A DNA stretch of 64,000 nucleotides from a virus. Taxonomy: Duplodnaviria > Caudoviricetes. Below are positions 3,048 through 56,427 of the stretch, one piece after another. The notes below the pieces were generated by a model. It ran no database searches and was not told the origin of the DNA. It saw only the letters and a program-made list of their open reading frames with translations. The translations under genes and the position numbers were made by a program. The first letter of the stretch is position 1, and each line of letters starts with the position of its first letter. The stretch covers positions 1-64,000 of the IMG/VR virus record IMGVR_UViG_3300033074_001499, one strand, 5' to 3'.

Positions 3048-4337
3048 TTGGCTGAAATCGATAACATTGTACAAATTAATATTAGTCGAGAGTCTACACC
3101 AGTAGCAACGGCTAGTTTTCAAATCCCTTTGATCCTATCAACATTCACTAATTTTGCTGAACGTACTCGTGAATACACTGACTTTGATGCTGTAGCTTCT
3201 GATTTTGATTCTACTGACAAAGTATATCAAATTGCTCAGCGAATCTTCGGTCAAACAGCAGGTATTCGTTTCCGTATTCCGAAAATTGTTGTGGGTCGTC
3301 GTCAAGTAAACGAAGTTACTATTGTTCCAGTAGTTTCCGACAACACTCTTTATCGTGTAACCATCAATGAGGTGGATTACACTTTTACTTCTGGGACTGG
3401 TGCAACTGCTACAACAATCACTGCTGGTCTTGACACAGCTATTGGTACTCCAACTGGTATTAATGCTAGTGCAACTGGTGGTGTTTTGACTGTTGGTAGT
3501 GCCACTCCCGGAGCCAACTGGTCTATTCGTACGTCAAGCAATCTCACTGTCACTTATACTGCTCCAACAGAGACTTGGGTTGAAGCCCTTGATGCTGTAA
3601 GCGAAGACAATAATGATTGGTACGCTCTTGTAGCAGAAAGTCATGCAGATGCTGATATTAAATCTTTGGCAGAAACAATTCAAACTCGTCGTAAGATTTT
3701 TGGTACTTCCACCCAAGATACCGCTGTTCCTACAGCAGCTACCACTGATGTTGGTTCTTACCTGAGCGATACTGGACTAGAACGTACTTTTATCACTTAT
3801 CTTCCAACTGCAAATACTCAATATCCTGAAGCAGCTTGGATTGGTAGTCAACTTGCAGCAACTCCCGGATCAAACGACTGGGATAAAAAACAAGGTAGCC
3901 TGATTACTGTTAGTAAACTAACCGACACTCAACGTGCTAATCTGCGTGAGAAAAATGTCAACATGTTTACCAAAGTTGCCGGAGTGAATATTTTCCAAGA
4001 CGGCAATACTTGCAAAGGTTCTCCTATCGATGAAGTAATTTTTATCGATTGGCTTTATGCTCGTCTGCAAGAAGGTATCTACTTCCGTCTGATTAATAGT
4101 CCAAAAATTCTGATGACAGACCCCGGACTAGTGAGTATTGAGAACGAAATTCGTAGTGTCCTTTCTCTTGCTCAAGCCAATGGTGCAATTGATGCTGGTT
4201 GGACTGTTCAGACTCCAAGTGTTCTTAGTATTCCTGAGAATCAGCGCGCTCAGCGTATTGCAGGCACATTTAAATTCCGCGCTCGTCTTGCTGGTTCAGT
4301 GAGAAAAGTAGTGGTGGAAGGGACGCTCAGCGTATAA
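3048..4337 (+). CDS. Contractile tail sheath protein
   Basis: 429 aa, TTG start; IDNIVQINISRE N-terminus, IDEVIFIDWL and ARLAGSVRKVVVEG C-terminus. Confidence 0.9.
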   Translation: MAEIDNIVQINISRESTPVATASFQIPLILSTFTNFAERTREYTDFDAVASDFDSTDKVYQIAQRIFGQTAGIRFRIPKIVVGRRQVNEVTIVPVVSDNTLYRVTINEVDYTFTSGTGATATTITAGLDTAIGTPTGINASATGGVLTVGSATPGANWSIRTSSNLTVTYTAPTETWVEALDAVSEDNNDWYALVAESHADADIKSLAETIQTRRKIFGTSTQDTAVPTAATTDVGSYLSDTGLERTFITYLPTANTQYPEAAWIGSQLAATPGSNDWDKKQGSLITVSKLTDTQRANLREKNVNMFTKVAGVNIFQDGNTCKGSPIDEVIFIDWLYARLQEGIYFRLINSPKILMTDPGLVSIENEIRSVLSLAQANGAIDAGWTVQTPSVLSIPENQRAQRIAGTFKFRARLAGSVRKVVVEGTLSV

Positions 4338-4350
4338 AGGAGCCTAGAAT

Positions 4351-4881
4351 ATGTCAAATTTAATCGGTAACTACGCACCAGATGATTTCGCGATTGTTAT
4401 CACTGTTGCTGGAAAAACCCATCGAATCACCGGCTTTGCTGCTGGTACGTTTGTAAACATGGAACGTCTTATCCCAACTTCTGAACCATATCAGGGTGTT
4501 GGCGATGACGCATTTGGTCGTGTTAAGCGTCGTGTAACAGCTATGAACGTGGGTATTACTCTTCACCAGTATTCCCCTTCAAACACTGTTCTTCAGCAGA
4601 TTCAACTTGCTGATGCTCGTACACCGGGTAACGAATATGTGTTTAGCTGCACCATGAAAGATACCAGTGGTCAAACTGTTGCTTCTTCAAACAACGCAAT
4701 TATTGCAGGGCCACCTACAGTAGATTTTTCAGATACCACTGAAACTCGCACTTGGCAGATTTTCATGTTCGGAAGTGATCTGTTTATTGGTGGCAACATG
4801 TTTCTTGATGAGCCCAATGTTGACATTGTGGAATCTCTCGGCGGTGTTGTCGAAGATCGCTGGAAACTCTCTAGCCGCTAA
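4351..4881 (+). CDS. Tail tube protein
   Basis: YAPDDF...ITGFAAGTFV motif; follows sheath; followed by a terminator. Confidence 0.8.
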   Translation: MSNLIGNYAPDDFAIVITVAGKTHRITGFAAGTFVNMERLIPTSEPYQGVGDDAFGRVKRRVTAMNVGITLHQYSPSNTVLQQIQLADARTPGNEYVFSCTMKDTSGQTVASSNNAIIAGPPTVDFSDTTETRTWQIFMFGSDLFIGGNMFLDEPNVDIVESLGGVVEDRWKLSSR

Positions 4882-4891
4882 AACAATCAGA

Positions 4892-4916
4892 GGGGTCGCA
4901 AGGCCCCTTTTATTTT
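4892..4916 (+). terminator. Rho-independent terminator
   Basis: GGGGTC-GCAA-GGCCCC followed by TTTTATTTT. Confidence 0.8.
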
Positions 4917-4928
4917 CAGGGGTAACAA

Positions 4929-5435
4929 ATGGCTGATCCTTTTAACTATTGTCCTGATGATGTAAATGTTCTAGTCGCTGGTCTCATTTCCCTGAAAGGT
5001 TTTGTTGATGGAACATTTGTAAATATCTCAAAAGATATTGATTCTTTTGTAGCTAAAAGAACACCTGATGGAACAGTAGCAAGAATTTATAATAACGATA
5101 ACACGTATACATTACGTGTAACACTGCATAATGGCAGTGAGTCAAATGATCTTCTCACTAAAATGTGGCAATTAGATCAAATTACAAAAGGAAGAGGGAA
5201 ATTTCCCATCTTCGTTAAAGATTTAAGTGGGACAGATTTAATGTTCTCTCTCACCGCCTGGGTTGAATCCCCTCCAGACATGGTTAAAAGTGCTAGTGTA
5301 GATGGGAGAACTTGGGTAATTCGTTGTACAGAATGCGTGATTAACTACGGCAGTAATACAGAACCTAGCTCAATTCTTAATGATATCGTTAACATTGCAA
5401 CATCTGCTCTTCCTGCATTGGATGGTATTCTATGA
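4929..5435 (+). CDS. Tail tube-like protein (paralog 2)
   Basis: YCPDDVNVLVAG...LKGFVDGTFV aligns by eye to the tube N-terminus. Confidence 0.65.
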   Translation: MADPFNYCPDDVNVLVAGLISLKGFVDGTFVNISKDIDSFVAKRTPDGTVARIYNNDNTYTLRVTLHNGSESNDLLTKMWQLDQITKGRGKFPIFVKDLSGTDLMFSLTAWVESPPDMVKSASVDGRTWVIRCTECVINYGSNTEPSSILNDIVNIATSALPALDGIL

Positions 5436-5896
5436 CAGATATTTTTACATACAGTCCACAAGATGTTGTTTTGGTTGTAGCAGGTTATCAAGTAAAAGGT
5501 TGGGAAAGTGTTCTGATTAAAAGGAACAAACAAGGCTTTCTTCCTGTTGACGGTATTCGTGGAACAAATACAAGGGTTAGGAACAGAAATACATCTTGTA
5601 CACTGATTGTTCCAATTCTGCAAACACAACAAGCCAATGATGTTTTTTCAAGGATTCATGAACTTGATCTTGAAAACGGAACGGGAAGACTTGAACTCAC
5701 CTTAACTGACAAAGGTGGTAACAGTGTGTTTTCAAGCACTGAAGCTTTTATCACATCTTATCCAGAAACAGTTTATTCTGGAGATTTAGAATACAGAGCT
5801 TGGACAATCTACTGCAACACTTCACAATTTTATGTTGGCTCAAATGCCAACCCTTCTTTTAGTCTTTTTAGCAATCTTTTTAGTAATATTATCTGA
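5432..5896 (+). CDS. Tail tube-like protein (paralog 3)
   Basis: YSPQDVVLVVAGYQVKGW; same family motif. Confidence 0.6.
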   Translation: MTDIFTYSPQDVVLVVAGYQVKGWESVLIKRNKQGFLPVDGIRGTNTRVRNRNTSCTLIVPILQTQQANDVFSRIHELDLENGTGRLELTLTDKGGNSVFSSTEAFITSYPETVYSGDLEYRAWTIYCNTSQFYVGSNANPSFSLFSNLFSNII

Positions 5897-5907
5897 GGAA
5901 TTTAACA

Positions 5908-6225
5908 ATGTCTAATCTAGTAAACATTCTAGAATCAGAAGAAAAAGAAATTGATGGTAAGCCGTACACTCTACATGCTTGGCCTGCAACTTTTGCTCTT
6001 GATTTCCTAGAAGCACAACAAGAAAACCTTGAAAAAGGTAAATCAGAACTTTCTCTGATGAAAGAAATTATCATTAAAAGTGTGACAGTTGGCAATGACA
6101 TGTTCACTTCTGCAAGTTTTGATAAACATTTCTCTCGTAAAACAAAACACATGACTCGTGTGTATGAGACCGTACTGGAATATAATCTAGGCGATCTTTT
6201 TACTCAACCCGATTCCGAAGAATAA
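5908..6225 (+). CDS. Tail assembly chaperone (G-like)
   Basis: 105 aa directly upstream of the tape measure gene. Confidence 0.75.
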   Translation: MSNLVNILESEEKEIDGKPYTLHAWPATFALDFLEAQQENLEKGKSELSLMKEIIIKSVTVGNDMFTSASFDKHFSRKTKHMTRVYETVLEYNLGDLFTQPDSEE

Positions 6226-6485
6226 ATAAAGAAGAGTCGGGTAAAGACAAACTTAAAACACCATTACAAAAAGAAATTGAAGACAAATACTCTCAACATT
6301 GGCAAATCTATAGATTGGCTGTGCATGAAAAAGGAGGTCTTCATATGGTGTGTGATCTTGAAACAAAGATCAGTTATAAACAAATGAATAAAATGCTGGA
6401 AATCTTAGACGTTTACGATTCTCTTAAAGAAGAAGCATATGAGAAAGCTAAGAGAGAGGCCGAGAAAAACAATCCAAAGAGCTAA
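6201..6485 (+). CDS. Tail assembly chaperone extension (T-like, -1 frame)
   Basis: -1 frame is open 6186-6485 (...EIEDKYSQHWQIYRLAVHEKGG...NNPKS*); slippery T CTT TTT plus downstream stem; absent from the ORF track. Confidence 0.65.
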   Translation, partial: YSTRFRRINKEESGKDKLKTPLQKEIEDKYSQHWQIYRLAVHEKGGLHMVCDLETKISYKQMNKMLEILDVYDSLKEEAYEKAKREAEKNNPKS

Positions 6486-6513
6486 ATTTTTAGCTTTCTT
6501 ATGAGGAAAATAA

Positions 6514-8741
6514 ATGGCTACAGCTATTACGATAAGAAAGTATACAGTTGATGTTTCTTATAAAATTAATAGAAATTCTGTAAGAAATATTGATAGGTCT
6601 TTTAGAGATTTTGAGAAAAAACTAAGACAGCTTACAAGACGATTAAACAGAGGAATCAGTTTAAATATTGATAGATTTACTATTGATAGACGTAGACTGA
6701 ACATGGCTCTTGGTGATGCTCTTGATGCTGCATCTGGCCGTCTAGCTTTTGAAATCAGCAGATTCGTTGTCAATGATCGAAATCTCCAAGCCTCTTTACT
6801 AAGAGCTTCTAGACGTGTTGGTCGAAATCTAAATCCTCCTAACAATAGACCGCCAAATAACCCTCCACCGCCTCCCCCAAACCCTCAACAACGAAATCCT
6901 CGCGTAATGGGCGGAACTGGGGCAACAAGAGCAGGTGGAACAGCAGGTTTAGCTGCAAGAGCTTATCTTCCTCTTCTTGGATTAGCTGGTGGAGGATATG
7001 GACTTGCTCAGCTTAATCAACGAAATCAACAAGTAGTATCTGCTCAGCTGCAATCTCAAGCTGTAGTTCAACAAGCAGGTGGAACACAAGCTCAAGGTGC
7101 CCAGTCATTTGAATATCTTCGTAGAGAAGCAGATAGAATTGGTTTTGATTATCTACAAGCATCAGGAGATTACAACAAACTAATTTCAGGTTTGACTGGT
7201 GCTGGAGTTGGCTTGGGTGAAAGTCAGAAAGTGTTCTCTGGTTTTGCTGAACTTGCTCGTGTAAATAAACTTGATAAAGTAACACAAAATAGGCTCTTCA
7301 GAGCTTTGAGCCAAGTGGCAGGTAAAGGTAAGCTTCAAGCCGAAGAGCTAAAATGTTAGGCTCGCTATGTAGAAATGCATAGAAAAATTAACCTCTCTAA
7401 TTCGGTGAAACTCCTGATAGGACAATACCGAGCGAAGCCTCTTTTAGAGGAACGTGTAACGACTATCCCGCAAGGGAGTACACTCAAGTGAGTGGAAACG
7501 GGAGGGAAGTAAACAGGTAATGCTGAACTTTAAGATATAGTCTCATCTTATAGGAAACTATAAGCAGTTCATAAGAGAACGGGGAGGGAAGTAACGAATC
7601 CTCCTGAAGATAATGTACAGGTCAAATTGCCGAAGCTCTCCCCGGTGGTACTGCTTTGTTTGCAGAAGCGTATCAAAGACAAATTGGTGGAGATAAAACA
7701 GGACAAGAAGCTATTTCTGCTCTGATGGAAGCAATGAAAAAAGGACAAGTTAAAGGCAGTGTCCTTACTTATGCTGGTCAACTTGCCTCCGAAAGAGCTA
7801 ACGCCGGTGGTGCATTAGGTTCTGCTTCTCAGGCATCTCAAGCAGAACAAGCAAGATTTCAAAATAGAATTTCTGATCTAGCAATTGTTGCTTCAAGCAG
7901 TGGATTAGAGTCTGGTTTTGCACGACTGTTCAGGGCACTGAATGATGGTTTGAAAGAAGCAAACCCAATGGTTGAATCTCTTGCTCGTGGATTTGATACA
8001 GCAAGTAAATACGTCAGTGGATTAATTCTTTCTGTTCAATCCCTCCAAAGATTTTTTCAGGGGAGGGATAGTTTTCTTGGCGATAAGTTGTTCCCAACAG
8101 AAGAAAGTCAAGCAAAGGCATTTGAGGCTTTTTCTAAACTGAAATCTGTCATGGAAGAGATGGATAAGTTATCCTCCAATATTTACAATGGGTGGAACAA
8201 CCTATTTCAATTGATTGATAATAGCACAGTGCTTAGTAAGCTGAATGACACATTATCTTTCTTAGGTAATTCTGCAAACGTTCTGAATAAATTCGCAGAA
8301 GGTGATTATTCAGATGCTGTAAGTTCTGCTAAGTCTGCTGGTAAACGATTTGTAAATACAATCACCACACCGGGGCGTATTGGAGCTAATGCTGTTATTT
8401 CAGCAGCAACAAAAGGAATTGCAGCGCTTGACCCTAGAGTTACGGCAGATCAAGTTACTCCTTTCCAGTTTGGCAAGCCTTTCGATGACGTTCGTTCTGA
8501 TTACGATTGGCGTACAGATTATAAAGCAGAACAAGCAAGATTAGCTGCTCAAACCAGAAATCAATATCCGTTGCCTGGGATCAACCAACCACTTGTCCCA
8601 GGACAAAAAGCAATTGATCTTTCAATTAAAATGGATGTTAAAATTGATGCTGCAAACCCCGAAGACTTTGGTAACAAATTCCAAGAGCATCTGAGAGACC
8701 TAACAAAAGCAACACTACTTCAATTTCCAGTAGGAGAGTAA
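6514..8741 (+). CDS. Tape measure protein, two exons join(6514..7349,7616..8741), 653 aa after splicing
   Basis: Removing the intron restores the frame and the conserved motif GKGKLQAEEL|TGQIAEALPGG. Confidence 0.88.
7350..7615 (+). ncRNA. Group I self-splicing intron (266 nt, no ORF, subgroup IA-like)
   Basis: P1 GAGCU/GGCUC with U.G at the 5' splice site; P3 CCUCUC/GGGAGG; P4 UUCGGU/ACCGAG; P7 GACUA/UAGUC; P7.1 and P7.2; P9 CUUAUAG-GAAA-CUAUAAG; terminal G at 7615. Confidence 0.92.
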
Positions 8742-8742
8742 T

Positions 8743-9525
8743 ATGTCCTTAGCCCTTCGCTGGGGTGAAGATGATAAAGACGAGGGTGGCTTCATTTATT
8801 TGAATGCCACCACACTTTACACCCAAAGTTATACTGGTCAAGTTACAAAACACCCTATTGACAAAGGTGGTAATATAACTGATCACTTTATCAAAAACAA
8901 TCCTGTATTTACAGTTTCTGGTGTCATCACTGGAGATGACATTAACACAAGTAGTTATTTGATTCAAGATTTAGTTGGTAATTCCCCATTTAATGTGGAT
9001 CAAGCCCCTACAGCAGTGAATGTTGAATCTACTGATCTTGGTGTTCTTTCTAATTTCATCCCAACAAGCATTGGTCAATTTCTTCCAAGTGTTGATCCTA
9101 CAGTAGTTATGGATGGACAAAGAGCTGATCTTCTTGAACAAATCAGAGAAGCCTTAATCAATTTGATCAGTGGTGTTAAATATGATGAAAAGATAGGTCA
9201 ATTTAACAGTAATATCCAACTTGTAAGATTGTTTGAATATGATGGTGTTAATTTAAAACGTATTCTAAATAATCTTGTTATTACTTCAATTACTTTCAAA
9301 GAAGACCCTAACACAGGGTATGCTCTTTATCCAGATTTCACTTTTGAACAAGTGACATTTGCTTCCCTTAAGAAAACTAAAATTCCAAAAGATGTAGTGA
9401 ATGCTCTTAAGAAGAAAGCTGCTACAAAAGAATCTAAAGGTAAACAAGACAGCACAGTGAATTCAGGTAATAATCCTCCAAAAACAGATGAAGACCCTCT
9501 TAAAAAGGTGGCTAATGAGATATGA
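8743..9525 (+). CDS. Baseplate/tail tube initiator protein
   Basis: VTKHPIDKGGNITDH motif; follows the tape measure gene. Confidence 0.65.
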   Translation: MSLALRWGEDDKDEGGFIYLNATTLYTQSYTGQVTKHPIDKGGNITDHFIKNNPVFTVSGVITGDDINTSSYLIQDLVGNSPFNVDQAPTAVNVESTDLGVLSNFIPTSIGQFLPSVDPTVVMDGQRADLLEQIREALINLISGVKYDEKIGQFNSNIQLVRLFEYDGVNLKRILNNLVITSITFKEDPNTGYALYPDFTFEQVTFASLKKTKIPKDVVNALKKKAATKESKGKQDSTVNSGNNPPKTDEDPLKKVANEI

Positions 9526-9854
9526 TTAATTATGTAAATATCCCACTGTTTTCCGACCCTTTTTACGATTATTCAATCTCCCTGGAGGGTAATTCATATA
9601 TTGTCCAATTCACTTATAATGAGCGCTCTAGGCTCTATTCTTTATCACTTTTTGATGCTGATTATAATGCAATTGTAAATGGTTGTGCTGTAGTCCCTAA
9701 TTATCCAATTATGAAAGATTATGCCATAGAAAATCTTAGTGGGTTTTTCTGGATGGAACCAAAGAGTGATTTAGTGATTGATAGTTATGAAGAATATCCA
9801 GATCAAATAGATCAGTTTTATAATATGTACTATATTTATGTAACAGAGGGTTAA
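9522..9854 (+). CDS. Baseplate protein
   Basis: 110 aa, YSISLEGNSY...YNER motif; baseplate module position. Confidence 0.55.
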   Translation: MINYVNIPLFSDPFYDYSISLEGNSYIVQFTYNERSRLYSLSLFDADYNAIVNGCAVVPNYPIMKDYAIENLSGFFWMEPKSDLVIDSYEEYPDQIDQFYNMYYIYVTEG

Positions 9855-9855
9855 T

Positions 9856-10743
9856 ATGCTAATTCAAAAGAACAGGAAGTATGAACTAATCATTGGAGAT
9901 TATAAAACAGAGGATGGTTTGTTTATTGATAACCTCCAAGTTTCTTTTGATATTAGCAAATCCTCTGATAATAAAAGTAAAACAAATTCTGCTGCAATTG
10001 AAATTTACAATCTTTCCGATGCAAGTCTGAAGATTCTTCAAACAGACTATCCTGCTGCTGTATTCAGTGCTGGTTATGCTGATATTGGAATTAAAAGATT
10101 ATTTGCTGGGCAAGTCACATTAGTAACCACTCGTAAGTCAGGAACAGACAGAATCACTCAACTCCAAATGGGAAGTGGATATACAGATTTAAATCACAAA
10201 TTAATGAACAGTCTTGTGGCTCCGGGAAGAACGTTAAAAGATGTTATGGAAGATATTAGGACTGCTATTCCTGGCGTGGCTCGTGGCGTCTACAACGGAA
10301 CTAATATCAATAATCCTATACTTTATGGTTATCCTTTAACGGGAACACCTAAAGAAATGCTAAATGAACTTTCACAAAAATATCAACTTGAATGGCAACT
10401 AGAAGATGATGTTTTGTATGTTCATGATAAAGAAAGAGCTAATCGTGAAAACTTCGATTCAGCTTATGTAATTTCTGGTGAAACTGGTCTGATTGAATCT
10501 GCCTACTATACGAACGGTGATATTAGGCGTTCAAAGAAAGATAAAATAAAGAAACAATCTGTTCAGTGGAAAATGCTGTTGAATCCAGACATTCAGGCTG
10601 GAGATATTGTGAAGCTAGAAGATACATTAATTCAAGGATGGTACAAAATTACAGACATTCGTCATAACGGTTCTTGGCGAGAAACCCCTTGGTTCACTGA
10701 ATGTAAGGCAACAGCTATTGAAAAGGTAATTAGAAATGTCTGA
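9856..10743 (+). CDS. Baseplate hub protein
   Basis: 295 aa; FDISKS..NSAAIEIYNLS and AGY motifs. Confidence 0.7.
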   Translation: MLIQKNRKYELIIGDYKTEDGLFIDNLQVSFDISKSSDNKSKTNSAAIEIYNLSDASLKILQTDYPAAVFSAGYADIGIKRLFAGQVTLVTTRKSGTDRITQLQMGSGYTDLNHKLMNSLVAPGRTLKDVMEDIRTAIPGVARGVYNGTNINNPILYGYPLTGTPKEMLNELSQKYQLEWQLEDDVLYVHDKERANRENFDSAYVISGETGLIESAYYTNGDIRRSKKDKIKKQSVQWKMLLNPDIQAGDIVKLEDTLIQGWYKITDIRHNGSWRETPWFTECKATAIEKVIRNV

Positions 10744-48731: not shown

Positions 48732-48806
48732 GGGCCTATAGCTTAAAGTAAAGCAGCCTGGCTCATAACCGGGAGGACTTAGGAGCGTTACCTATTGGGC
48801 CCACCA
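48732..48806 (+). tRNA. tRNA with CAT anticodon, probably tRNA-Ile2 (lysidine)
   Basis: Full cloverleaf GGGCCTA...TGGGCCC-ACCA; loop CTCATAA; C4:G69 and C5:G68 TilS determinants; atypical T-loop AGCGTTA. Confidence 0.85.
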
Positions 48807-56333: not shown

Positions 56334-56427
56334 GAGGTTGTAGCTTAATTTAAAAGCAGCGAGGAACACAGAGGCTTCATAAAAGCCAATGCATCCGTCA
56401 ATGCAGGTGCAAATCCTGCCGACCTCA
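56334..56427 (+). ncRNA. tRNA-like RNA with extended anticodon arm and no encoded CCA
   Basis: Acceptor GAGGTTG/CGACCTC; D-arm GCTT-AATTTAA-AAGC; T-arm GCAGG-TGCAAAT-CCTGC; ~45 nt between the D and T arms. Confidence 0.6.

Follow-up and report, generated by a model that had tools for sequence, protein, structure and literature searches.

The window analysed here comprises the first 64 kb (64,000 nucleotides) of an 84,314-bp IMG/VR record (G000), a metagenome assembly with an estimated completeness of 91%, and belongs to an uncultured, contractile-tailed phage of about 84 kb. Between a tail assembly chaperone and the baseplate genes, the position expected for a tape measure, lies a gene for a tape measure protein (TMP) which is split into two reading frames (Table 1). 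According to its profile matches the gene is a TMP gene: exon 1 matches PF20155 (TMP_3) with 41.3 bits (cut-off 41, profile positions 12-112 of 192), and TMP PHROGs match both exons. The chaperone-like ORF and the 56-aa ORF following it may perhaps represent the usual chaperone frameshift pair. A cultured close relative of the phage was not found, and the best TMP matches in the phage database are those of Pseudomonas myophages with 25-41% identity. One homologue of exon 1 (P0156) is encoded on an 88-kb contig that carries the NCBI name Chitinophagaceae MAG, and this name gives a weak hint at Bacteroidota as hosts of the phage group.

Table 1. Features of the tape measure locus and of the intron, with positions in the window
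Feature	Position	Strand	Basis or remark
Tail-assembly-chaperone-like (TAC-like) ORF, 105 aa	5908-6225		upstream of the TMP gene
56-aa ORF	6315-6485		just 5' of the TMP gene, after the chaperone-like ORF
TMP exon 1	6514..7349	+	278 codons and the first 2 nt of a Leu codon
P1	GAGCU 7345-7349 / guide GGCUC 7359-7363	+	Rfam alignment
Group I intron, 266 nt, ORF-less	7350..7615	+	RF00028, 84.1 bits; removal restores the alignment
In-frame UAG	7357..7359	+	8 nt into the intron; terminates the 281-aa unspliced product
P2 hairpin, GAAA loop	7365..7382	+	Rfam alignment, fold
P3	7392-7397 / 7500-7505	+	encloses the catalytic core 7392..7505
P4	7402-7407 / 7426-7431	+	
P5	7412-7422	+	
P6/P6a	7433-7454	+	
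P7	GACUA 7461-7465 / UAGUC 7538-7542	+	
P7.1, GCAA loop	7466-7477	+	
P7.2	7481-7494	+	
P8	7506-7531	+	followed by J8/7 AAGAUA
P9, GAAA loop	7547-7564	+	
P9.1	7567-7580	+	RNAalifold, with covariation
P9.2	7582-7605	+	
Terminal (omega) G	7615	+	3' splice site between 7615 and 7616
TMP exon 2	7616..8741	+	last nt of the Leu codon, 374 codons and stop
Dit-like (Dit_like), Pam3-gp18-like (Pam3_gp18) and baseplate-hub genes	8743-10743		downstream of the TMP gene

The upstream frame (ORF 6514-7359) encodes 281 aa and ends with ...AEELKC before its stop codon. The initial annotation had placed this stop within a 266-nt insert, had expected a truncated 281-aa product from unspliced mRNA, and had proposed a splice junction giving a protein of 653 aa; the stop and the junction lie exactly where proposed, and the truncated product follows from the sequence. 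Joining 7349 to 7616 results in a stop-free 653-aa frame reading ...KLQAEELTGQIAEALPGG..., and this spliced TMP aligns gap-free across the EEL/TGQI junction (the slash marks the splice position) with 30 homologues that have no insert. These proteins are 606-720 aa long, and their best local alignments with exon 1 show 53-88% identity. In the profile phrog_5255, exon 1 corresponds to positions 330-427 and the frame from 7617 to positions 428-547, so that the profile passes from 427 to 428, unbroken, across the 266-nt gap. The intron is located after the second base of a Leu codon in the most conserved motif of the TMP (...GKGKLQAEEL/TGQIAEALPGG...), where a predicted homing target in an intron-less gene would read GAAGAGCT/TACAGGTCAAAT. 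Because the bases beside the junction differ, the conserved Leu-Thr cannot be recovered with any other splice-site pair, and only the junction 7349/7616 gives Leu-Thr-Gly-Gln as in the homologues. For annotation this means that the ORFs 6514-7359 and 7656-8741 should be combined to one TMP gene, join(6514..7349,7616..8741), of 653 aa.

The insert is a genuine group I intron. The Rfam model RF00028 (Intron_gpI, curated gathering score 50 bits) matches the plus strand at 7340-7564 over the full model (positions 1-253) with 84.1 bits and E 6.2e-20, and this is the only match in the 84-kb record. A single-sequence fold recovers most of the helices (z = -2.8), and with both values taken together the match lies far beyond chance. 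The anatomy given in Table 1 combines the Rfam alignment, the single-sequence minimum free energy fold and an RNAalifold consensus of seven compact introns. Every core helix is present, including the P3-P8 and P4-P6 domains, the guanosine-binding helix P7 and J8/7. The complete core that had been described beforehand, with a U.G pair in P1, GNRA caps, the P7 strands GACUA/UAGUC and a terminal G, was thus interpreted correctly. The 5' splice site follows U7349, which forms the U.G pair with G7359. Since P7.1 and P7.2 are placed between P7 and the 3' strand of P3, and P9.1 and P9.2 follow P9, the intron can be assigned to subgroup IA, where it appears IA2-like, IA1 and IA2 not being formally separated by this assignment. 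The ORF list contains no sense ORF, and hence no homing endonuclease ORF, within the 266 nt.

The intron family supports this structure. In alignments whose structure is partly derived from the window sequence, P1 and P2 are paired to 94.8% in eight family members with 7 of 12 pairs changed on both sides (5 of 7 for P2 alone), and P9 and P9.2 to 98.4% in nine members with 10 of 14 pairs changed on both sides; controls with slid partners stay far lower, for P1 and P2 at 21-44% paired and at most two pairs changed on both sides. RNAalifold detects compensatory changes in 36 of 48 consensus pairs of the seven compact introns. The U.G splice pair is kept in all eight family members, and the guide sequence co-varies with the exon even at a shifted, downstream insertion site. 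Eight same-site introns could be read at the 3' end and all of them end in G, before exon UAC or its equivalent. In family members at the window's site the reading frame continues for 1-7 codons into the intron before it meets a stop. The covariation suggests that the RNA structure of these introns is under selection.

It is very unlikely that the element is a decayed remnant which has lost splicing, in which case the two TMP parts would be synthesised as individual polypeptides or the phage copy would be defective. Such a remnant would suit the weak P10 (about 2 bp, 3' exon UA with UA upstream of the guide) and the absence of a homing endonuclease, whose loss precedes loss or decay of the intron in the homing cycle, and splicing in the window phage is deduced from DNA rather than read from RNA. 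However, a decayed intron would hardly reach 84 bits over the full model and retain every conserved junction motif. The exons speak against it as well: between the window and its sister genome L004, both of which carry an intron, dN/dS is 0.10 in exon 1 and 0.07 in exon 2 at dS values of 0.83 and 0.70, and these ratios indicate strong purifying selection on either exon, with the two frames related to each other as in intact homologues. Constraint at the protein level on both halves over such a substantial divergence means that the halves must still be joined. Furthermore, the first in-frame start codon of exon 2 (ATG, GTG or TTG) is the TTG of codon 14 at 7656, and the TMP_3 domain is cut in its middle part, at position 112 of a profile of 192.

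Studying related TMP loci from IMG/VR reveals that occupied and empty alleles coexist. While 75 of 80 loci are uninterrupted, five are interrupted (four contigs plus a duplicate), four of them at the window's site and one 15 nt downstream. The split is found at the identical nucleotide in L004/L009 (which are one contig), L078, L082 and L083, and 15 nt downstream, at ...TGQIA/EALPGG, in L079. HNH_3 ORFs are present in the inserts of L004 (236 aa), L078 (240 aa) and L079 (227 aa), and also in L119. In the sister genome L004, whose TMP is 84-92% identical, the same-site intron has 1116 nt and carries its HNH_3 ORF in the P6 loop. At the gathering threshold RF00028 misses the ORF-bearing introns of L004, L078 and L079, and at E 0.01 their signals are weak or absent, because the ORF splits the model; they were identified by aligning their ends. 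The introns of L082 (3304-4038) and L083 (3310-4043) are also inserted at the window's site and contain a 134-aa Endonuclease_7 (PF02945) ORF instead of HNH_3. Judged by these ORFs, the endonuclease class has turned over at one TMP insertion site.

An independent 88-kb contig, L119 (IMGVR_UViG_3300011768_000001), harbours two introns on the minus strand (5840-4556). The first is compact, ORF-less, inserted at the window's site and 74.5% identical to the window's intron in an alignment of 263 nt; a 16-nt micro-exon (TACAGGACAATTGGCT) separates it from the HNH_3-bearing second intron at the downstream site. In a collection of 5.8 billion proteins exon 1 matches 91 clusters of 220-471 aa (E <1e-20), and by their C-terminal tails 56 end just after EEL, which is the window's site, 28 after TGQ(I/L)A, which is the downstream site, and three one codon before EEL. 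The last three (P0187, P0205 and P0211, ending ...LMS/...) point to a further insertion site 8 nt upstream, as read for intron 1 of the Vibrio phage ICP1 (see below). Interrupted TMP alleles are thus a common minority, as expected of a homing site. A BLAST search with the intron gives matches in 701 phage records, many of them from Staphylococcus phages.

Comparing the window's intron with that of L004 reveals a difference between periphery and core. The first 43 nt (P1-P2) are 97.7% and the last 109 nt (P8 to the end) 95.4% identical, values above those of the flanking exons (84-89%), while BLAST aligns nothing in L004 with the 112 nt that P3 encloses. A simple deletion origin from an L004-type intron was therefore rejected. 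The closest relatives of the P3-enclosed core are instead found in the L112 intron (88% identity over 102 nt) and in the L111 intron (90% over 73 nt). The former (5939-6621) resides in a T7-like terminase large-subunit gene and has a SegE-type GIY-YIG ORF; the latter (8601-8800) adjoins a TMP gene of the PhageMin_Tail type (PF10145). Both P3 strands have changed together, from CUUCUUU/AAAGAAGG in L004 to CCUCUC/GGGAGG in the window. By its sequence the window's intron is thus a mosaic of an L004-like periphery and a P3-enclosed core from a compact intron lineage, and since the core is unmatched in L004 and the P3 strands are co-changed, a core replacement and not a deletion separates the two introns.

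That this mosaic is only an assembly chimera, joined from reads of two introns in one sample, is extremely improbable. The record is indeed a metagenome assembly, and ends 95-98% identical to the L004 intron around a core that matches other intron lineages are what such an artefact would produce. However, the switch points coincide with the two P3 strands, which are complementary to each other within the window copy, and only short sequences are shared across these points. In addition, a compact intron whose core is of this kind occupies the site in the independent contig L119 too, and the pattern of different cores at one site has been published for isolate genomes (PMC2504315).

If the mosaic is taken as real, the ORF-less intron could have arisen by a module swap, a reading that we offer tentatively and hold to be possible rather than probable. 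In this case an HNH-bearing TMP intron would have exchanged its P3-enclosed core together with the endonuclease gene for the compact core of another lineage, keeping P1 with its guide, P2, P8 and P9-P9.2 as periphery; the cores closest to that of the donor would be those in the T7-like terminase gene and in the unrelated TMP family. If true, intron recombination between genes would be a route by which phages purge homing endonucleases and keep an allele that is competent for splicing and immune to cleavage.

The initial annotation had regarded a tape measure gene as an unusual host for a group I intron, and in this point it was wrong. Group I introns (IA1/IA2), some without a complete endonuclease gene, had been described at three TMP sites in prophages of the B. 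cereus group (Tourasse and Kolsto 2008, PMC2504315), and the TMP gene was later called "another frequently interrupted gene" (Barth et al. 2023, NAR Genom Bioinform, PMC10448857), in a study which also demonstrated splicing of the TMP transcript of ICP1. The B. cereus-group introns (TMP-IVS1, IVS2, IVS3a and IVS3b) differ from the window's in that they interrupt siphovirus-type TMPs of more than 1200 aa from phages of Gram-positive hosts, at other insertion sites. TMP-IVS3a and IVS3b have near-identical P1 and guide sequences and a central core that is only 54-62% identical (PMC2504315), so that in TMP-IVS3 the periphery is conserved and the core swapped as in the window's intron. As both TMP introns and their splicing have been published, no new question is opened by the present case; what it adds is a further example, from an uncultured phage and with a mosaic core.

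Other known introns share the architecture or the variation in ORF content. The IA2 introns of phage T4 td and nrdB and of Staphylococcus phage Twort have P7.1/P7.2, P9.1/P9.2, GNRA caps and the J8/7-P7 consensus AAGAUAUAGUC like the window's intron, but their host genes encode nucleotide-metabolism enzymes or other proteins, and T4 td has a GIY-YIG gene in P6. For the lysin intron of Streptococcus thermophilus phages, ORF-containing and ORF-less versions at one site within a phage population are known (Foley et al. 2000, as cited in PMC8541194). The window's family resembles it, because here too ORF-bearing and ORF-less versions share one site. The ORF-less lysin introns are reportedly simple deletion derivatives, whereas the window's intron differs in the whole P3-enclosed core.

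[quoted passage not shown] ICP1 has three introns and two micro-exons in its TMP gene, the window only one intron. In the ICP1 TMP locus (L089) Rfam detects three group I signals, of which TMP intron 1 scores 77.9 bits, below the 84.1 bits of the window's intron. The exact ICP1 junctions given here were derived by us from L089 by P1 pairing and protein alignment and are not taken from PMC10448857. Read in this way, intron 2 starts after GAAGAACU, has the guide GGUUC and a near-identical P2, and would occupy the same phase-2 position in EEL as the window's intron with a compensating change of the guide (GAACU/GGUUC). By the same reading intron 3 would be at the downstream site, like the introns of L079 and the second intron of L119, and intron 1 would be 8 nt upstream. 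The spliced TMP has no tblastn match (E 1e-5) in the Vibrio phage loci, the TMPs being too diverged, and the homology of the sites in the Vibrio phages follows from the reading of the motif and P1 pairing.

The same hot spot is seen in the Vibrio phages K470 (L001, OZ196312; two introns, ~3990-5448) and HNL01 (L002, MZ456352; three introns, 3990-5608), in whose TMP genes the group I introns follow each other in tandem with micro-exons of about 16-33 nt between them. Their GenBank records show an HNH endonuclease and individual CDSs named "hypothetical" or "tape measure", but mark no intron. The HNH frame of HNL01 is broken into two ORFs (4776-5039 and 5078-5428). In the upstream intron of both phages no convincing P1 with a U.G pair was found, and its 5' boundary is approximate only. 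The correction proposed for the window applies to many database entries, namely to K470, HNL01 and dozens of metagenomic clusters which are annotated as split or hypothetical. With the uncultured phage group added, one short, highly conserved TMP motif is seen as a recurrent landing pad of group I introns in very distant myoviruses, at which not only the presence of an intron and the endonuclease class but even the ribozyme core are subject to turnover.

Taken together, we are highly confident that 7350-7615 is an intact, ORF-less, IA2-like group I intron of mosaic composition in the TMP gene, and that it belongs to a family of introns which would home into a TMP hot spot; splicing, homing and immunity are deduced from the sequences. 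The late transcript would fold into the ribozyme, and an exogenous guanosine would attack 3' of U7349, kept in place in P1 by pairing with the guide GGCUC. Exon 1, once released, would then attack after G7615, giving an mRNA for the 653-aa TMP, so that tail assembly would depend on guanosine-initiated self-splicing of a late transcript. On unspliced RNA ribosomes would halt at UAG 7357-7359, ahead of the ribozyme core. A design in which partial splicing sets the ratio of full-length TMP to a functional 281-aa second protein hardly deserves credit, since the in-frame stop that all family members have a few codons into the intron is the rule in phage group I introns, 75 of 80 loci without an intron cannot make such a product, and the intron-encoded tails vary by lineage (KC, NVRLAA, ECRLAS). 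The usual explanation of such early stops is that they prevent ribosomes from entering the ribozyme.

The intron belongs to a family that would use HNH or Endonuclease VII-type nucleases to move into the TMP hot spot. Lacking a nuclease gene, the window's copy depends on passive spread or on help in trans; the initial annotation had likewise stated that mobility would need an endonuclease in trans, and the homing endonucleases of the relatives could serve this function. Because the intron splits the target site, it probably protects its own allele from cleavage.

Past the end of the window the record G000 contains two HNH_3-like open frames, at 77111-77386 (+) and 69249-69590 (-), of 203 and 382 aa, with 43% and 28% identity to the L004 intron enzyme over part of its length. 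From this similarity they may be free-standing homing endonucleases, for which an action on the TMP site has no support. ARAGORN calls no tRNA across the whole window. Rfam gives two tRNA matches in it (48732-48803 and 56334-56427, 41.4 bits each), and in the second of these a 34-nt insert replaces the anticodon arm.
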